The notes beneath the pieces were generated by a model. It saw only the letters and a list, made by a program, of their open reading frames with translations. It did not search any database and was not told the DNA's origin. A stretch of 63,787 bases of DNA, the filler included, from Globobulimina sp. (lineage: Eukaryota): NCBI GenBank assembly GCA_003354225.1. It is 53 parts of 53 records of this genome, joined end to end, with 100 filler letters (N's around TTAATTAATTAA, not from the genome) between each part and the next. Parts side by side here need not be neighbours in the genome. Positions count along the whole stretch, not along the records: positions 1 to 1,106 come from PIVH01023364.1; 52 more parts are not named here. The stretch is one strand, 5' to 3'. The number at the start of each line of letters is the position of its first letter. The stretch's first letter is position 1. The translations under genes were made by a program, and so were the position numbers. Below are positions 1 to 51,501 of this stretch, piece by piece.

Positions 1-1051
1 AGAAATTATTTTGCGAGAAAGTGAATTTTATGAAGACAGCGATGATGAAAGCAGCGATGATGAAGAATACGAGGACGATGCAGCAGATTCAGATTTTGTT
101 ATTTTGCAGAAAAAGAAGCCGGTTTACGCCCCTCCGGCAAAGAAAAAAAGAAAACAGATCAAGAAAAAAGTGGTGAAGGCGACGACGAAGAAACCCCGTA
201 AATTATTAAAGAAAAAGAAGAAAAAAAGAAAAGTCAGTGTTAAGAAGGCGAATAAAATGGGTATGATTTTGTATTTTTTCAGTTTGAAACTGTTTCTATT
301 GTTTCAGTTTCAAACTGATTTTATTTTTGTGTCAAACGTCTTTCAGTTTGAAACTATAAAAATGCGCATAATCGCATATAAAATAAATACAATATACAGC
401 AAAGATCGACGAATTGAGATTGGATTTGATGAATCCAAAGGCGGTGGGTCCAGCGGAGAAGAATATGGGTATCACAATTATCGAGTTATTGGCAAAGTAC
501 ATCAAAATGAGGCCGTTTGCGCGCGAAGTAATCATTAAAATGCGTGAGATTCAGCAGAAGAAAGGGCAGTTATTTGGGCAATACAGTGAAGTAAATGGTG
601 GATATCATTGTCGATATACACCGCCAGAGAATGGGGTGTTATATTCGGCGTTGTGTTGGTTTGGACGATGGGGTCATTATGTGGGGAGCGATATGGATCG
701 TAACGTCTCCTCGGCGTCGAACGTGCATATTTTGTGTCGGACATATCATTGTTTGATACGCATTGAAAGTATGTTTTGTTTCAGTTTCAAACTGAATTTA
801 ATTTTTTCAGTTTGAAACTGTAAAATTTGCGAACATTTTTTGATTCAGTTTGAAACTGAATTTTTTTTTTGTATACACAGATTTAGATAATATATATTTG
901 GATTTAATTAGAAAGCGAGAGCCGTCATCGTTGGCGAAACGGATCAAAGCGATATGTGGCTATCATGGCAGCGATGCAGTCACCATTTTGACGCAAGGGC
1001 AATTATCGAAAATGGGATACAACAAAGAGATTAAAGTGGCATCTTCAAGTT
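1..1051 (+). CDS. Spliced hypothetical protein, partial (acidic then Lys-rich N-terminus); exons <1-260, 400-768, 881-1051>
   Basis: GT-AG introns 261-399 and 769-880, plus a donor at 1052, join ORFs 11-, 414- and 850- in one continuous frame; all three are phase 1. Confidence 0.8.
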
Positions 1052-1106
1052 GTATGTGCTTTTTTTATTTTTCAGTTTGAAACTGAATTTTTTGAGTTTG
1101 AAATTG
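278..1106. repeat. Intron-restricted 17-bp palindrome TTCAGTTT(G/C)AAACTGAA, about 8 copies
   Basis: Copies near 278, 303, 342, 779, 806, 844, 1071 and a degenerate one near 1092; none seen in exons. Confidence 0.9.
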
Positions 1107-7899: not shown

Positions 7900-8444
7900 T
7901 CAATATTTGTATTTCAATGGCTAAAGATCAGTGACTCTCAATTAATAGTTCTTAAATAAATACATTCTCACTTTCAGCATGAATTTTATTTTTTCATCAT
8001 TTGAATTATTGACATTATTTATTTATAAATTCTTTGTCATTTGAGTGTGCAGAAGAAAGTTTTGTGGAAATGTTTTTTAATTTTTTTGGAACAATGGTGT
8101 TACCAGTACCGTGTCTGCAATCACATCACAAATCCAATGAACAAAAGTAAACATACAACAGTCGCGATTCGCAATGTTGTTAATTTTAATTTATTTTAGC
8201 AAATAACTAAAGATGTTGCATTCAATTCAATTTCCAGTCTTTGTTTTGTTTAATTAGTGCAATTAATGATATGTGGTGCAATTAGTAAGGAAAATATCAA
8301 ACCAAAAAACTAGACTGGAATAATGGTATTTACGTTGTAGCCNNNNNNNNNNNNNNNNNNNNNNNNNNNNNNNNNNNNNNNNNNNNTTAATTAATTAANN
8401 NNNNNNNNNNNNNNNNNNNNNNNNNNNNNNNNNNNNNNNNNNAA

Positions 8445-9365
8445 ACTGAATACATTCATGTTGCATGACACTCCCTATACATTGCTGACGTTAACCAATT
8501 TAAATATGAAACATTGAATGAAACAATAACCACTGTCTTTAAAATGAAGATAGTTTCGCTATTTATATGGAGTATTGTTGGTTGCTCAGATGCTGCTGAT
8601 CAGGATTCAGATGAATATAAGAAATTATTATTCAAATGGTGCGATACAAAAAAGATATTAAATGTTATTATAAAAAGTCAACAATATGAGTTTGGAGATG
8701 ATACAAAATGGGACGAAGGGATATCAAATGACTATCACATTGAAACATTTCAAGAGAAAATATCCCATATTCCAATATTATACACACAGATTGATAGTGG
8801 TATACGCGGAGGGAATTTGAATTTAGCATTTGATACTGGTCTGGATAATACCTGGAAATTTAAACCGAAAGAATCATCGATTATTGTTTTCCCAAACATG
8901 CATCATAAAATTGATAAAATATCGGTTTGGAAATGGAATAAATATAAACCATTAAAAACAAAACAGAAAAGAAGAATTTTGTGCTTTTTTTTATGTTCAA
9001 ATGAATATTTTGCATCGACGACAGCCTGCACTGCATTGACATTTAAAGGCGAAGAGGAGTGCATATATCAAGAACGAGAGAATGTAAATAGACGCATTCA
9101 AATATTATCACAGTTACCATTATTGAGCACAAATGATGCATTGCCATTTGATAAACAACATTGCAATCAATTATTAACTGACATCTTAAACAAAATATGG
9201 AAAGACATTCCAAAAGCTATCTCATTGATTATTAGAGATTATATTTTGGACAATAAATTGCTACGAAATGAGACTGAAATGGAAATGAATGCGCGTGTGG
9301 TGCTTGAACCACGATCCCGTTGTTTGACTACTAAAGTTTTTGATTTCTTACATTGTTCTAACTAA
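8445..9365 (+). CDS. 2OG-Fe(II) oxygenase-like (DUF4246-type) protein, possibly disrupted
   Basis: HIE, GGNL, IIVFPNMHHKI and RRILCFFL resemble DSBH oxygenase motifs; in-frame TGA at 8466-8468 upstream. Confidence 0.5.
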
Positions 9366-9649: not shown

Positions 9650-10237
9650 AACACCATAAGAGATACAAACAGAAATAGAATATCCTGGGAATGGCTGCTT
9701 TATCCCAAGGACAAAGGAGACATTGTCGCTGAAACTGATTCTTCGGGCAAGTTTGGAATGGGAGGTTTAGAGAAAAAGGACGGAGGAATATGTTTTATGG
9801 TGAGATATGAAGATATTATTGGTTGGGACACACAAAATGAACCAGACATAGTATGGAAAGAGCTTTGTGCAGTTTATATAATCAACAAACTACAAAGCAA
9901 GGAATGGGCCAATAAAGCAATTCTAATAAAAGTCGACAACAAAGCCGTCGAACACATACTGATAAAGAAAAAGGCCTGTTTTGAAAGGAAGGATTTGCAA
10001 GTTTTAGTTAGGAAAATATGCAAAGAATTAATGCACTCAAACTACTATGAATGGGTGAATTGGTTATCAACAAAAGCAAATATTTACGCTGACGGGCTAT
10101 CAAGAGGCGATTGGACAGTTTTGGATAAGTTAACTTACGATTTGGTACATGCCTTGGTACATGCCCAGGAAGCGATGAGGCCTTGGTACATGCCCAGGAA
10201 GCATGGAATCTGTACAAGGATGCACGAAAACGAATGA
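9650..10237 (+). mobile_element. DIRS-type retrotransposon RNase H domain
   Basis: Catalytic motifs ETDSSG, WKELCAV, KVDNKAV, NIYADGLSR in an open frame. Confidence 0.85.
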
Positions 10238-18646: not shown

Positions 18647-19196
18647 TTATATATTATATCGCGTTTCTTTAAAAAACTTTGTGAAATATTGTCCGTTCCT
18701 TTGTTGTGCATTCTTATCTAAATTATTAAAACGTTTTAATTTTTGTTTGTTTTATCACGAAATTCAAAGTTCAACACATTAGCTACAACCTCGCAGACTC
18801 GCAGTGGTACCGTCATATATTACCAATATAACATGTTTTGTCCATACCTGTTATGATTGGTTGATTGTTGATTTGTGTGATTTCTTTAATTGTTTACGTT
18901 TTGTTGCTTGTAATACCATGATTTTTAAATACCTGCTATGATTTGCATGAGACAGTTGAGTCAATAAATGTTTGTCTGTTTTCAATGACTTTTCATAATG
19001 ATTCATTATGTTTTGATATATAACATGTACATTTCATCATTGTTGCAATCACAACTATTTTATTACAAGGAACGGAATTAAATATTTTAAGCGCGCGTTA
19101 TATATTATATCGCGTTTCTTTAAAAAACTTTGTGAAATATTGTCCGTTCCTTTGTTGTGCATTCTTATCTAAATTATTAAAACGTTTTAATTTTTG
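18647..19196. repeat. Exact 99-bp direct repeat (18647-18745 and 19098-19196)
   Basis: Identical TTATATATTATATCGCG...TTTTAATTTTTG; the second copy ends at the contig edge. Confidence 0.9.
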
Positions 19197-19635
19197 NNNN
19201 NNNNNNNNNNNNNNNNNNNNNNNNNNNNNNNNNNNNNNNNTTAATTAATTAANNNNNNNNNNNNNNNNNNNNNNNNNNNNNNNNNNNNNNNNNNNNGTTA
19301 ATAATAAAATGTTAAAGGTAACATTTAACTTTTTGCTTTTCAGTTTGAAATTACTGTTTTTTACTGTAAACTCTTTGAATTTACAGTTTTTTACAGATTA
19401 TTCAAAATAAAAACACTGAAAGTCAAAATTGAATTGCTCTTTGTTACCCATATTTTACGATCTAGAATGTTTTTGCTGTCAATTCTCAAAAAGGCAAAGT
19501 TTTTTCTCTTTAGTGTGTGATCGAGTGACGCATGAAATTATATATTTATTGTACAAATGTTAAAAACCTATCTTATTATCCTTGCACATAAAATCATGGA
19601 CAACTAATAATGTTGTTGTTAAAGTCAATTACATT

Positions 19636-24120: not shown

Positions 24121-24450
24121 TTGTAATTTCAGTTTCAAACTGAAAATCCATGCAAACACATTTCAATTCCAGTTTCAAACTGAAAATATACATAAAATCA
24201 ATTCAGTTTGAAACCGTGAATTGATTTTATTACTTTGGTATAGTAATGATACGCCGGCGGCGGCTTCGCCGCCTCCGCCTGCGTATCATTACGATTTCAA
24301 TCTGAAAAAATCAATTCACAGTTTCAAACTGAATTGATTTTATGTATATTTTCAGTTTGAACTGGAATTGAAATGTGTTTGCATGGATTTTCAGTTTGAA
24401 ACTGAAATTACAATTTGTTTGTATGCATTTTCAGTTTGAAACTGAAATTT
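24121..24450. mobile_element. Foldback/MITE-like element built from TTCAGTTT(G/C)AAACTGAA units, with a central GC hairpin, located in an intron
   Basis: Arms ~24121-24228 and ~24307-24413 are near-perfect reverse complements; centre GTAATGATACGC...GGCGGC-TTC-GCCGCC...GCGTATCATTAC (24243-24292); splice acceptor TACAG at 24471-24475. Confidence 0.75.
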
Positions 24451-24475
24451 AATCAATTTATAATATAATATACAG

Positions 24476-25226
24476 GTGAATGGGCAATAAATAATATTAA
24501 ACAATTATTATATGCATTTGCTTCGAATATAAATAATCAACAACAACAACAACAACAATATATAGCCCCTGTACCTCCACATATTGCTGATAATGTTGCT
24601 GCGCCAATTACTGCTGCTATTGATCAACATATTCATCCTCAAACATCATACAACGCACAAAGAGGTCAAAGCAAATGTAAAAATGCAAGATTTGACCCAT
24701 TATTAGATACATTTCGCACGACATCCCCGGAAATTAAAAAGAATTTAAAAAAGAAAAAGGAAATCAAATATAATGGATTTAATAGAAAAGTGAATGATAT
24801 TATTATTGATAAAGCATTGAATGATTTAAATATGAAAATTGAAATTAAAAATAAATTAAAATATTTGATATGTAATGAAGGCGAAAAATGTATGAGAAAG
24901 GATAATAAGATACAAATTCCAAGGCCTAATAAATTTATTCAGCATTTATTAAGTACCAGTCATAAAAAATGGTATTTTAAAACAAAAAAGATTGTTATGA
25001 ATGAATTAAAAGAAAAAGAAAAACAAAAAGAATTAGAACAGAAACAAAATACAATAATTGAAAATAATAAAACTATTTATTTATCGGATGCTGATGATTA
25101 TGTATGTGATTTGACTCAATTTAGTAATAATAACAATATAAATGATTCTGAAAATGATATAAATAATAATAATATTATAGTTACTGAATATATTCCAGCA
25201 ATAAAAAATAGTGTAATTGATTTGAA
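24476..25226 (+). CDS. Exon of hypothetical protein (poly-Q, Asn-rich), partial
   Basis: Frame open from the acceptor (GEWAINN...) through ORF 24790 to the contig end. Confidence 0.7.
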
Positions 25227-25326: not shown

Positions 25327-25557
25327 CTGAGCAAATTGGTGCTGTCAACCTCATTGCAGAAACTGCCAAAATGAGAAATGTCCCGCTCTATTCCGCGCTG
25401 TTGGATATTCGTAAAGCATTCGACATTGTGTGGAGAAAAGGCCTCCTTTATAAATTGCACAAACAGTTCAATATACCGCTTAACCTTTGCAAAACACTGA
25501 AAGCCATCTATGACAACTCTCAATCAGCCATACGAGACCTACCGTTCATCACAAACA
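25327..25557 (+). mobile_element. Non-LTR (LINE) retrotransposon reverse transcriptase fragment
   Basis: LLDIRKAFDIVWRKGLLYKL RT motif. Confidence 0.85.
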
Positions 25558-25561
25558 AATC

Positions 25562-26432
25562 CAGATAAAAAACCTGAAAATTGGTTTCCTAAACATCAGT
25601 GGCAACGCAAAGACAAAAATAAACCAAATGCATCCGTACATGCAACAGCTTGTAATGCATCACAAACTGGATATAATCCTTTTGATCGATACCAGAATCA
25701 TCCATCGCCCCAATTGGAAACTGCCAGGCTATAAACTACTGATCCATAAAGCGCCCAATTCTACGAACAATCCACGCAATGTAGGAGGTATTCTCATTTA
25801 CCATAAATACAATCTACGTAACAAACTGCAGCTACTCCATAAAACGAGAGGGCATAATACTGCCTGGATTTCAGTCCAAATCCCAAATCAATCCAAACCC
25901 TCCTACATTGCCATTAATTATGCCCGGCCATTCAAGACAAAGCTCGCCGATCGCAGCTATAACTTCTACCAATTATTGACATCCGATATTAATAAATATA
26001 AGCAATGCTGCCACTCAATGTATGTCATTGGCGATTTCAACGCCAGAATGGGAGCATTGACCATGGACCATAACACAAATGGGCATTATCGATATATGAA
26101 GCAAATGCTGGATGACACCGATCTAAAAATAGCCAATCCGCAATTTGCGCCCAAGTTTCTGACGTGTCTAGCCAAGGGAACCCAAAATACCGGTGGTTCC
26201 ATAATAGACTATGTGATAACAGATAAGCTTAATACCATACAGACAATGAACGTTGACACGCATCCGATATTTATGGATCACCGGCCAGTCGTTTTCACGC
26301 TTAACAACATAAAATGTGAAACAAATAATAATGATAAACATATGGTGCTACGTACAAATAAACCCAATGATGAACTGACTAAAATCCATGAAACCATCCT
26401 AGAAACATCCACCAAACACCTTGACAAATTTG
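25562..26432 (+). mobile_element. Non-LTR retrotransposon APE-type endonuclease domain
   Basis: LKIGFLNISG, GGILIY, NYARP, IGDFNAR, SIIDYVIT, MDHRPV. Confidence 0.9.
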
Positions 26433-29010: not shown

Positions 29011-29551
29011 ATGGGTGTGTAATACACAATATTCTCTACAAATATAATTAGATACAAAACATACATATTTGCAACAGGAATTTGTTCCGCTAAGGATGAC
29101 AGTGATGATGTCGAATCAGAACAAAAAGAGAAACTAATTCCAGAAACACCAAATGCAACAACCGATACAACAGACGCAGTAGAAAAAGTAGCAGGAGCCT
29201 CAGGAACCGCAGCAGCAAATAAAGTGACAGTAAGCATTCAATGGTGTGGTGGATGAGGCTTTGCCGCCAAATTCAAGGCGGCCAAACAATTGATACTCAA
29301 GAAATTTCCAGAGAATGTTGAGGTTACTTCCAAAAAAGATGCGACCATCACTGGTAATTTCGAAGTCACTGTAAATGGCACATTAGTGCATTCAAAGAAA
29401 ACTATGGATCATGGCTTTTTACATTCAAATCAAGCACAGCAAGACGTGCTATTTGCTGCAATAAGTATGTCATTAATGTTTTGTATGTGTATATTATATG
29501 TGTATACTTGCTATGTTTTATACAGCTCAACAACTTGAAGGAACAGCATAG
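29011..29551 (+). CDS. SELENOW: Selenoprotein W / Rdx-family protein, 138 aa, C58-G-G-U61; exons 29011-29014, 29078-29464, 29526-29551
   Basis: VSIQWCGG-TGA(29254-29256)-GFAAKF...ITGNFEVTVNGTLVHSKK..DHGF is the SelW signature, with homology on both sides of the TGA; two phase-1 GT-AG introns keep the frame. Confidence 0.9.
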
Positions 29552-32457: not shown

Positions 32458-32848
32458 NNNNNNNNNNNNNNNNNNNNNNNNNNNNNNNNNNNNNNNNNNN
32501 NTTAATTAATTAANNNNNNNNNNNNNNNNNNNNNNNNNNNNNNNNNNNNNNNNNNNNATTAAGGAGTGATCATTTGCTCCAATTCCATTATAAATTTCAC
32601 ACAGTCTTCTGGATTTGCAAATTTGTTCTGACTTTGTTCTGGATTTGCAAACCCAAGACAAAGTTATAGCAAACTGTTTCTGGATTTGCAAAGCGTTTCT
32701 CAGATAATTGATAAATATATCATTCAGTGACTGTGTGAAATTTATTAAGGAATTGGGGAAAATGATCACTCCTTAATTGCTATCGGGAAAATTAAATAAA
32801 TTCTGTGTCTGTATAGTGATGCAGTCACAGTTATTGTCAATGGTCTTG

Positions 32849-37077: not shown

Positions 37078-38582
37078 AACGTATACATTTATGTTAAAGT
37101 ACGTATTATATAAAGTTGGACCAACGTACATTCATTCAAAAACATCAAAAAAAGTAGGTCATTGCTAGGATTACTTAAATGCCATATAAAATGCAGTATT
37201 AATGAATATAACAACTATACAAAAAGTATTTTTGAGCAGTCAGCATATTTATGTAGCTGATATTACAATAATTCAATNNNNNNNNNNNNNNNNNNNNNNN
37301 NNNNNNNNNNNNNNNNNNNNNTTAATTAATTAANNNNNNNNNNNNNNNNNNNNNNNNNNNNNNNNNNNNNNNNNNNNATTACGCTACATCGCCACCAATA
37401 CGTACCAATGTGATTTGTGATGTTCCGGCGCCTCCAATCGATGCTATCTATGATGGTACGGCGCCGCCAATACGTACCAATGGCATTTATTACGGTACGG
37501 CGGCTCCAAACGTACCAATGCTTATTTATTGCGGTACGTAGCGCAGTGGTCATAGCGCCGTGGACAGCTGCCACCTACAAATCTCTTCTTGTGATGATAG
37601 CTCAAAGAGAGCGTCTTATTGAAGAATATTTGGGTTAAAATCCCAATCATCACATTTTTTCACCAATATAAAATCACAAATATAACTCTTGCAAAAATCG
37701 ACAATATAAATAGTCAATATATTGTTATGTACTTGTTATATTTATGTCTTATATTGCCATAGTTACACTGGTGCTATTACCTTGGTGCTTTTTCAAATTC
37801 CATTAACTCAAACTTTCGTCGGAATTTTGCGGTTTGGGGAATTTCATACTTTTATCAATATTGCGGATATCTCATAAATATTTAATTTTGACAGTTTTTA
37901 ATGATTTCCATACATTTTAACATTTCATCATATTTTTTCTTTTACAACTTTTGATCAAAAATAAAGGGTAAATCAATTAGAAATCCGTAATATGCTATAA
38001 AGATATGTTTTAAGTATTTTGTCACGTTAATTTGTAACTTTTTGGTTGATTTTTTTTGTAGCTAAGTATAACATTTTGTTGTTTTTCTTGATGTTACTTC
38101 AAAAATCGACAAAATGGCTTGCTTAAATGCTAAACAATTGGATGGTTCATCTGTTCAAATTGCAGCAACATTCGTTAATGATTTATTCACAGAGAAAAAA
38201 TCAAATAGCAATATTAATTATAATTTGGCTAAATATAAACTGCCAACACATAGTATAAATTCACACATTAAACAAGAGACCTAATGAAAATAAAATGGAT
38301 TCAATTTTTGGCAAAAATGAATATTTATGAGGATTTTTCGTTTGTAACAAATACAAGACATACAATGGAATATAATTGTGATGAATTGTCAGTTTTGGCA
38401 TTGGTGATGAGTGATATATTAAATGAAGAAACGATTGTAAAATATATGTTAAATGCAACTCATAGAGTTGAGTTGCAATCTANNNNNNNNNNNNNNNNNN
38501 NNNNNNNNNNNNNNNNNNNNNNNNNNTTAATTAATTAANNNNNNNNNNNNNNNNNNNNNNNNNNNNNNNNNNNNNNNNNNNN

Positions 38583-49427: not shown

Positions 49428-50532
49428 GGACGGCGACGTTGTGCCGTTGCGTGGGATACCCGACGTGTCGGCCGATAAAAATATAAGTTCACGTATTCGC
49501 AGTGGAAGGTTGAGATTCAACCGGCGGTCATCAAGAATGAGTGACACCGCGCGCCGCATGTTGGGCTTAATGAGTGTTATGATGGCTGGGAGAGCACAGG
49601 GAGTGACCACCGGAATCTATTCAAAGCAAATGAACAATGTCCAAACTGGCTTAGATGGAAATATATTGTTAGAGCCAGGTACGAATATTCCTGTTCGTAC
49701 TGTGGGGAGAGGCAGATTATCCAAACGTGGCTGTATTTGTCCGTGTAAATGCAGTGCGTTACCAACATATGGTATGATTTATAATTTCTGTTTCTTTATT
49801 TAAAACAATTATAACTAACACATTCTGATTGGGATCTATATATAGTTGCAAATGGCAGAGTTTTTGTGAAAAACAAAGAAGTGGTGAATGCTCCGGCGTA
49901 TTTACGGGATTTTTTGATCCAACAACGTTCGTTTATGGACTGCATATCAAATTGCGATGTGGTGAAACAATGGACAGTGCCTGAAAACCTATTAAGTGCA
50001 ATATTTGGTTATATTACTATTTCACCGACAGAGTATACATGGAAATTGAAGTTAAAACGGGAGAAACTTGAGAAGAAATACAGTGAATCCAACGGTGAGA
50101 TGGCAATGCCAGAGACAGATAAGGAATTATTTGAAATGATATCGAGCGACGAGGAAATGGATAACGACCAACCATGGAAATCGCCAGAATTATTACAGGC
50201 GGAGTTGTGTATTTGTTTGTGTTTATGCTCAGGTTCTCCGTTGATAGTCGCACCAACTTTTCCTGTGATGAAATATGCCGTTTGTTACAAGAAGAAAGCA
50301 GCCAAAATATACTTCGATGAGCCATTAAGTAATGGCAATGCCGCGGTCATTGGTTATCAAATCACCTCAATGCCTGGCAACATAATCAAAACTGGGCGAA
50401 AATCGCCCATTAAAATAAAAGGACTGAATGTTGGCCAGAAAGTAATTGTCTTTGGCTACCCCTCCTACGCCACGCAGGTGGCGGTACCAGGCAGCAAAAT
50501 TATTCCTCTGCCTGATAATATTGATTTGGATG
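49428..50532 (+). CDS. Mosaic ORF: spliced eukaryotic part, FN3-like segment, terminal MDR/quinone-oxidoreductase-like fragment
   Basis: Intron ~49772-49845; FDEPLSNGNAAVIGYQIT (FN3); VGQKVIVFGYPSYATQVAVPGSKIIPLPDNIDLD (MDR-like). Confidence 0.45.
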
Positions 50533-50635: not shown

Positions 50636-51501
50636 GGATGGTCCTCAATGCATGGACACAAATATGCAATTCGAGACCATGCGAAAACAATGGGTTTCGA
50701 CATTGACGTATCGGCAAAGGGAATGCCCAAACTTTATGATGATATAACTGGGGAAAGAAGGAAGCGGCCATCGGGCCCGGTTCAAAACCTGTGGACAGAG
50801 ATATGATCAAAAGATTTTATGAGATAAACAGGAAAGACCCAAAGATGCAGCAAAGGGACATCTTAATATGGAAAGCCATCCTTGCATTGGGACACGACGC
50901 AATAAAAAGGGGATCGGAAATCACCTATGATGGCATATTGGAGCAGGGAATCGAATTAAAAAAATTCGAATTCGAGTTCCCATTCGATCAAAATGCATTG
51001 GATAACAAACAATGGATCAGCAGTAAGTACTGCAAATATAATAGAAACAAAGGGAAAACCTACCAATTTGGTGGCAAACTGACTGCCATATTGATATGCA
51101 ACTGCTTCAGTGACGTCTGTGCACTGCACGCACTGATAAAACTAATAAAATTCAAGATCACGAATATGGATTCGGACTTGAACAACATATTCAAACTGGC
51201 AAACGGCAAATCGCTAAACAAATACGCACTTGCCGAGGGTTTCAGAAACTTGACCAAAAAAGGCGGCTTCAAAAAAGGCGAAGTAACGCCACACGGGACA
51301 AGAAAGGGCGGGGCGCAACAAGCCATCAGGGATGGAATACCGGCCCCCTACATAATGAAACAAGCAGACTGGAGGACGGAGAAATCGCTGAATAGATATA
51401 ACAGCAACGTACACGACCAGACTCGAGTCAAAGTACTGCTGAAAATAAACAAAAAAGCAAAGAAAAGACATAAGAAAGAAAAGAAAAGGAGAAGACACTA
51501 A
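50636..51501 (+). mobile_element. DIRS-type tyrosine recombinase with a frameshift near 50778
   Basis: KRGSEI, CALHAL, TPHGTRKGGA, ADWRTEKSLNRY (R-HxxR-W-Y); upstream coding continues in another frame. Confidence 0.85.

Follow-up and report, generated by a model that had tools for sequence, protein, structure and literature searches.

A palindromic repeat unit in short introns and in a foldback structure of a probable foraminifer

Introduction

Why does each visible intron of one gene contain copies of the same 17-nt palindrome? The gene lies on the first contig of the window, by which we mean the whole analysed stretch of DNA of 63,787 nucleotides, filler included. In a preliminary description, the palindrome was proposed to represent an intron-associated repeat family, possibly an introner-like element, an array of protein-binding sites or an RNA-pairing device. 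Here, with middling confidence, we interpret it as the unit of a dispersed foldback/MITE-like repeat family whose presence in short introns is secondary, in an organism that is probably a foraminifer.

The nuclear genomes of foraminifera and other rhizarians are barely described, and repeats are one reason why their assemblies shatter into kilobase-sized pieces. A defined unit that is easy to search for and flags a foldback-type family would aid annotation and explain contig breaks. If the family proved to be confined to introns or to create introns genome-wide, it would provide a rhizarian case for the origin of new introns.

Results and discussion

Composition and origin of the window

The window consists of 53 unlinked contigs of 1105-1106 nt each, joined by N spacers, and does not represent one stretch of a chromosome. 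The contigs are A+T-rich, with a G+C content mostly between 0.26 and 0.43, and eukaryotic. Pfam matches in the window include a dual-specificity phosphatase, an amino-acid transporter, BRO1, COMM, SLIDE, a sulfotransferase, a LINE-type endonuclease and a tyrosine recombinase. The best relative of the sulfotransferase shares at most 52% identity, and all seven relatives with a species-named source come from foraminifera (Bolivina argentea six times, Nonionella stella once). Judging from this single gene, the window probably derives from a foraminifer. The search with the BRO1 frame among longer proteins gave no match. In the foraminifer Reticulomyxa filosa, a gene contains about two introns, 87 bp long on average (PMC13746701, Table 1), which is in agreement with the sparse, short introns in the window.

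The contig at 54248-55352 possesses two frames placed back to back on the minus strand, one of them CheC/CheX-like and the other a response-regulator receiver (E 1e-26). Judging from these frames, the contig looks bacterial, and the assembly would thus contain more than the eukaryote.

Structure of the gene on the first contig

The gene on the first contig is predicted to comprise three exons and three introns, the last of them incomplete (Table 1). Exon 1 encodes an acidic stretch followed by a lysine-rich stretch. All three introns are in phase 1 and start with GTATG, and the two complete ones end with ACAG. The statement that every intron of this gene is filled with the palindrome applies to all three visible introns, in a gene that is cut at both ends of its 1106-nt contig. 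The arrays start 11-19 nt past the donor and stop 20-41 nt short of the acceptor.

Table 1. Features of the two contigs that carry the motif, in positions of the window
Feature	Coordinates	Strand	Description
Exon 1	2..260	+	Open frame; start cut by contig; ends in phase 1
Intron 1	261..399	+	139 nt, GTATGA...ATACAG, phase 1; motif copies 278-294 (G), 303-319 (C), 342-358 (G)
Exon 2	400..768	+	369 nt; conserved part of a lineage-restricted protein
Intron 2	769..880	+	112 nt, GTATGT...ACACAG, phase 1; motif copies 780-796 (C), 806-822 (G), 844-860 (G)
Exon 3	881..1051	+	171 nt, open frame
Intron 3, start	1052..1106	+	GTATGT, phase 1; runs off contig; one exact motif copy 1071-1087, degenerate truncated copy from 1093
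Foldback	24121..24413		293 nt from the first base of the contig; G+C-rich centre; motif copies 24128, 24168, 24202, 24288 (degenerate), 24317, 24351, 24390
Extra unit and tail	24414..24475	+	Exact motif copy 24430-24446, A+T-rich tail, putative ACAG acceptor
Open frame after putative acceptor	24476..25224	+	Phase 1, runs to contig end

The search with exon 2 gave two matches at E <=0.001 among 1.84 billion representatives. One of them, P0001, was discounted as a repetitive protein of which only 39 residues matched. The sole credible relative of exon 2 is P0002, a protein of 189 aa from a metagenome contig, with 28% identity over 123 residues. The spliced protein aligns with P0002 without gaps across the junction of exons 2 and 3, and exon 3 is colinear with residues 123-150 of P0002. 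Taken alone, the alignment of exon 3 is weak (score 34, reached by 33 of 500 shuffles), and BLASTP of exon 3 against P0002 found no match. The search of a protein atlas returned no usable match, and structure modelling of P0002 and exon 2 reached a mean pLDDT of 40.7, too poor for a fold search.

Both complete introns are predicted to fold strongly as RNA, with -38.4 kcal/mol (z -6.3) for intron 1 and -32.3 kcal/mol (z -5.8) for intron 2, and the donor is sequestered in both predicted folds. In intron 2, the predicted hairpin begins at the donor only. A mirtron-like intron would form a hairpin with paired ends and a 2-nt 3′ overhang and would give small RNAs; in intron 1, the two ends pair in the predicted fold and AG is left free, but this fold is multi-branched.

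Number and placement of the motif

The motif TTCAGTTTSAAACTGAA occurs in six exact copies in 63.8 kb, compared with 0.00 expected from 100 shuffles. Allowing up to three mismatches, 14 copies were found, compared with a shuffle mean of 0.50 and a maximum of 3 (100 shuffles). These counts, far above those of the shuffles, and the copies in all three introns bear out the earlier description of introns filled with the palindrome. As also described, the G and C forms of the motif are reverse complements of each other.

A weight matrix of 21 columns, built from the motif copies found, detected 15 copies at 19.5 bits or more, all of them on two of the 53 contigs. The hits start at 276, 301 and 340, at 778, 804 and 842, at 1069, and at eight positions across 24126-24428; a sixteenth copy, from 1093, is degenerate and cut off by the contig end. 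All copies lie in four AT-rich stretches (261-399, 769-880, 1052 to the contig end, and 24121-24475). No exon of the model for the first contig contains a copy, just as had been noted, and the four copies located inside open frames belong to frames that simply read through into an intron.

The other 51 contigs hold zero copies, despite 19.2 kb outside open frames of at least 100 codons. The next-best matrix site, at 19337, scores 11.0 bits, a value that shuffled contigs reach zero to three times per round in 20 rounds. The weak occurrence reported at ~19339 is therefore at the level of chance. The position of both loci in putative introns and the zero copies in the 19.2 kb elsewhere suggest an association with introns; the clusters represent at most two independent loci, possibly even the halves of one intron.

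A candidate phase-1 intron of 74 nt at 49772-49845 (+) is free of the motif. Its first 16 bases are near-identical to those of intron 1, and an ACTAAC branch-point-like site lies about 25-30 nt before its acceptor. Because this good candidate has similar ends without the motif, the motif is not a general intron signal. Scanning 284 open frames with Pfam for split domains, which would have provided homology-supported control introns, detected none, and the control introns are thus frame-based candidates only.

The half-site AAACTGAA closes one contig (2305-2312), at the end of an open frame, and opens another (8443-8450), on which a signal-peptide-like gene starts about 100 nt further downstream. 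These half-sites hint at further copies just past the contig ends, one of them apparently non-intronic.

The motif had not been recognised as a described element, and two 13-mer cores were absent from the literature searched. The 11-mer cores appeared in 21 papers, with unrelated contexts in the 20 that were listed. The Rfam scan of the window returned a tRNA at 37591-37654 only, and the motif loci were without an Rfam family.

Anatomy of the unit

The conserved unit measures about 19-21 nt and consists of the 17-mer core with T-rich and A-rich edges. It is repeated in tandem with a period of 25 nt over 268-325 and of 40 nt over 24348-24449 (2.6 copies). When the units were oriented by their central base, a hand count gave 1 mismatch in the left half vs 14 in the right half. 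The numbers are 1 vs 11 without the copy that carries a deletion, and about 1 vs 8 when the mirror-image copies of the foldback are counted once. Since the mismatches are concentrated in the right half, the unit is directional, and not a symmetric hairpin kept by pairing. Copying from a template fits these half-biased mismatches better than selection for a perfect hairpin.

Introns 1 and 2 are colinear from end to end, with 84 of 106 columns identical. The start of intron 3 and the tail at 24400-24475 are colinear likewise (44/53, 48/63 and 42/51 columns). Nonetheless, end-to-end homology of introns 1 and 2 was rejected, as a motif-preserving shuffle control removed it: with the motifs, GTATG and ACAG fixed, shuffling of the spacers equalled or exceeded the score of the real pair in 896 of 1000 controls. 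Therefore, only the unit and its spacing are common to introns 1 and 2. Target-site duplications at the splice sites, which the preliminary description had proposed to look for, were not observed; the exons end in GG, AA and TT, and none of these is repeated at the 3′ boundary.

The foldback and the second motif locus

The second locus starts with a foldback whose arms of about 143 nt each contain three motif units and a degenerate fourth, with periods of 34-40 nt. The outer 54 nt of the arms are 100% complementary and the inner 91 nt are 89% complementary, with indels, and 6 nt lie between the arms. The foldback matches itself over 294 nt at 91%, and its predicted fold reaches -207.4 kcal/mol (z -28). 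In its size, its terminal inverted repeats and its lack of an open frame, it agrees with a MITE. Its arms, inverted repeats made of tandem sub-repeats, agree with those of foldback transposons, as judged from the single element seen. A second full-length copy was not found in the window, and the full element was not found in the public run described below.

The foldback is followed by one more unit and by a putative phase-1 acceptor, ACAG at 24472-24475 (AG 24474-24475). Together with a GTATG at 24421, this acceptor delimits an intron-like module of 55 nt. The acceptor is likely, because the open frame after 24475 is in phase 1 and lacks an ATG for about 118 codons. For the frame at 24478-25224, neither a relative at E <=0.001 nor a Pfam family was detected. 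Of the earlier claim that this second locus is also an intronic array, the array is present, and the intronic position is plausible, the upstream exon lying beyond the contig. The two motif contigs have a G+C content of 0.36 vs 0.26. Given the matching phases and the two contig ends within arrays, the second contig could conceivably continue intron 3 of the first one.

Comparison with public contigs

Three public contig runs of one sample were compared, and matches were obtained from run X1 only; this run may come from the same sample as the window, and would hence not be independent support. Record 2 of X1 reproduces 250-626 without any difference, including all three units of intron 1. Fifteen out of 17 X1 contigs align with the first contig only in part and continue into unlike sequence. 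At least three of them (records 3, 5 and 6) match motif stretches only, and one motif-only contig has a depth of 26.6, vs 4-5 for unique contigs. The unit is thus present in four non-coding stretches on two contigs of the window and in other sequence contexts of X1, which upholds the proposal of a repeat family.

Run X1 also contains a diverged copy of the gene. Of 227 sites compared with exon 2, 27 (12%) differ, 21 of them at third codon positions, and 5 of 75 residues are changed. In exon 1, a diverged copy in the same run has a 3-nt in-frame deletion at 106. Because the exon-2 differences favour third positions and the deletion keeps the frame, these sequences give indirect support that the gene model of the first contig, with its predicted introns, is real. 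In the diverged copy, intron 1 is found at the same place, without 279-329 (51 nt, equal to two 25-nt units), and possesses one unit instead of three. As the copy keeps the intron with two units fewer, intron 1 is older than the split of the gene copies, and the number of units changes. An interpretation of the 51 nt as an inserted 40-nt hairpin module with a duplicated flank was dropped, given that the difference equals two 25-nt units.

In the last 70 bases of the intron, the two gene copies differ at 4 of 70 positions, compared with 21 of 75 third codon positions (Fisher p 0.0004), a contrast taken from one contig of one run. Since neutral junk should not outlast synonymous sites, constraint or homogenisation of the intron is indicated. 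Conservation of the core and the intron beyond synonymous sites is unusual, and this contrast alone among the results would not be predicted for a neutral selfish repeat, or for ordinary selfish DNA in general.

A metagenome scan for two motif cores spaced 10-30 nt apart detected 18 loci, none of them like the family on the first contig. Most of these loci have a G+C content of 0.39-0.57 and carry single pairs by gene starts, similar to bacterial operator palindromes. Loci L008 and L017 belong to a satellite of about 74 nt with other flanks. The same paired-core scan found 0 loci in viral contigs and 10 loci in prokaryote genomes, all bacterial and none resembling the motif family. Five of the metagenome loci (L001, L003, L005, L013 and L018) possess ACAGTTTSAAACTGT-type palindrome pairs, 16-17 nt apart and just upstream of start codons, on contigs with a G+C content of 0.49-0.55. 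By appearance, this is a recurring bacterial operator layout unrelated to the motif.

Interpretation of the repeat

The reading that we prefer starts from what can be seen directly, namely a unit, its arrays, a foldback, other sequence contexts and a different number of units in two gene copies. The 17-mer would be the conserved core of the unit in a gene-less nuclear repeat family of an A+T-rich protist, probably a foraminifer. Its units would be laid out as inverted pairs, as short arrays with periods of 25-40 nt, and as a long foldback with arms made of arrays. We infer that the family is mobile, now or formerly, and that its core may be the recognition site of a transposase or of another dimeric DNA-binding protein. 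The introns would predate the arrays. Short A+T-rich introns would tolerate insertions and the growth of arrays because they are spliced out, and arrays within them would gain or lose units through slippage or unequal exchange. A foldback family is favoured because the hairpin arms of repeated units, in an element of 293 nt, resemble the composite inverted repeats of foldback elements (PMC3169594, excerpts). Against it stand the absence of a target-site duplication among the boundaries seen, the left flank of the foldback lying beyond the contig start, and the absence of a transposase family among the 284 open frames of the window. In addition, the core is near-invariant, the spacers resemble each other no more than shuffled sequence does, and all clusters lie in putative introns, all four of them in phase 1.

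The last point would be expected if the repeat were an introner, whose insertion created the introns complete with GTATG donor, interior and ACAG acceptor. This explanation is unlikely in our view. It would account for arrays that fill the introns nearly from splice site to splice site, for introns that align colinearly, and for the predicted pairing of the ends of intron 1 with the AG free. The unit outside the foldback has its own GTATG and makes up the intron-like module, and P0002 is continuous over the position of intron 2, which would mean absence of the intron only if P0002 is encoded by one uninterrupted frame. However, the spacer-shuffle control leaves the unit alone as common sequence, and the motif-free candidate at 49772-49845 has nearly the same 5′ end as intron 1, so that the likeness of intron ends may be ordinary splice consensus. 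For introners, introns of unrelated genes have to be alike up to about 10 intronic bases from each splice site, a family comprises four or more introns of non-paralogous genes, and target-site duplications, which often take in splice-site bases, are frequent (PMC9860276, excerpts). Similarity of this reach is lost here once the motif is controlled for, and the four introns lie on two contigs, three of them in one gene. The earlier suggestion of an introner is not supported by the comparisons made here, which gave spacers alike at the level of shuffled sequence, intron boundaries at which no target-site duplication was seen, and a gene copy with 12% exon divergence that keeps intron 1 with fewer units. 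To a similar degree unlikely is a palindromic element resident in introns that carries GTATG and ACAG, spreads from intron to intron in phase 1 and later comes under selection. Its hairpins would draw the splice sites towards each other or supply small RNAs to a pathway, and selection on them would account for a core and an intron that are better conserved than synonymous sites.

Selection alone, on units that serve as DNA sites of a dimeric factor in an intronic regulatory array, as RNA hairpins that shape splicing by pairing within and between introns, or as hairpin precursors of small RNAs, is improbable but to be taken seriously. A conserved core with free spacers, an intron that is conserved better than third codon positions, and the strong predicted folds with a sequestered donor are all in agreement with it. 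The TTTGAA centre of the unit matches the element of LIN54-type CXC proteins (PMC4974476, excerpts), which is a lead only. Nevertheless, the mismatches in one half of the palindrome have no compensating changes, which selection for hairpins would forbid, the number of units is unequal between gene copies, and no Rfam family matches. The units also build a near-perfect foldback, which is typical of selfish repeats. Quite unlikely is a local minisatellite, in which both contigs would belong to one gene and the arrays would have spread by slippage and gene conversion, without a mobile family. The agreeing phases and the contig ends within motif arrays speak for it, the tandem periods of 25 and 40 nt and the difference of two units between the gene copies are features of a minisatellite, and, the gene being multi-copy, some of the partial X1 matches are paralogues (records 1, 4 and 7). 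However, several X1 contigs match the motif stretch only, with G+C-richer unlike sequence on both sides, and a half-site lies at the very edge of two further contigs. The exon composition of the two motif contigs differs, two neighbouring pieces in one window of 53 contigs would be a coincidence, and the copies on the second contig and in other contexts would be left unexplained. Very improbable is an artefact, with arrays or foldback produced by amplification chimeras or by the assembler. The foldback begins exactly at a contig end, its outermost arms are perfectly complementary, and the assembly is highly fragmented and includes a bacterial contig. Nonetheless, the inner arms are complementary only in part and contain indels, the independent X1 assembly has the same stretch with the three intron-1 units, and chimeras would not repeat a 17-mer 15 times with varied spacers.

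Comparison with known repeat systems

The transposons En/Spm (CACTA) and Ac/Ds possess subterminal transposase-binding repeats, in which a short motif is repeated in both orientations with variable spacers in the arms of the element. By analogy, the motif described here would resemble these subterminal repeats in its conserved short sequence, its two orientations and its variable spacers. Unlike in En/Spm and Ac/Ds, neither element ends nor a transposase were seen.

In foldback elements, the inverted arms consist of short units in tandem, the number of which varies, and MITE-like members exist among them (PMC3169594, excerpts). Similar to FB of Drosophila and Tm1 of Meloidogyne, the element described here has long inverted arms of short units that vary in number, and, like the MITE-like members of FB-type transposons, it is gene-less. 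In contrast to FB and Tm1 as presented in these excerpts, the core of its unit is itself palindromic, the spacers between units are not conserved, and small arrays are found inside short introns. Tm1 produces a target-site duplication of 9 bp (PMC3169594, excerpts), whereas none was seen here, and neither were terminal motifs or a transposase. Like MITEs, the repeat is small, A+T-rich, non-coding, hairpin-forming, multi-copy and located in or near genes (PMC5172404, excerpts); unlike in MITEs, only the unit of 17-21 nt is common to the loci. The best reading is a new foldback/MITE-like family with a palindromic unit.

With the introners of Gozashti et al. 2022 (PMC9860276, excerpts), the repeat shares that it nearly fills introns of more than one gene with canonical GT..AG boundaries. 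It differs from them in that the likeness is limited to the unit, that no target-site duplication was seen and that the diverged gene copy retains the intron with fewer units. The excerpted main text of PMC9860276, supplementary tables aside, mentions neither Rhizaria nor foraminifera, and the literature searched contained no mention of an introner family in Foraminifera. Similar to the introner elements of Amoebophrya (PMC7789003, excerpts), inverted repeats occur within introns and may form hairpins that bring the intron ends together. In Amoebophrya, inverted repeats of 8-20 nt are located at the intron ends, with direct repeats of 3-5 nt over the boundaries, and the introns are mostly non-canonical (PMC7789003, excerpts), whereas the introns described here have canonical boundaries and carry repeated palindromes in their interior.

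Other repeats and genes in the window

A second foldback, unrelated to the motif, was found at 32558-32777. It starts at the first base of its contig, measures about 220 nt with 71% self-complementarity, repeats a unit of about 15 nt in its interior, and is located directly downstream of the gene for the amino-acid transporter. In this assembly, contigs seem to break commonly at foldback repeats, since both foldbacks, at 24121 and 32558, begin at the first base of a contig and an assembler would break at multi-copy elements. A degenerate tandem repeat with periods of 29-51 nt takes up the entire contig at 33763-34867; it abounds in GTATGTCAG, and several of its frames are open through composition alone. 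A direct repeat of 99 nt, 100% identical, is present at 18647-18745 and 19098-19196, and its second copy stops at the contig end.

Genes predicted to belong to mobile elements were also identified. The LINE-type endonuclease frame is located at 25514-26431, with no motif copy near it, and the tyrosine-recombinase frame at 50743-51498 (Phage_integrase, E 1e-5, just under the Pfam cut-off) has no motif nearby. The frame at 9650-10234 resembles RNase H by eye, has no Pfam match and is likewise without a motif nearby. On the plus strand, 29182-29538 encodes a predicted selenoprotein W/Rdx-like gene with a Pfam Rdx match at 29257-29535 (E 6e-8). An in-frame TGA at 29254-29256, read as selenocysteine, would give a CGGU redox motif right before the Rdx match.
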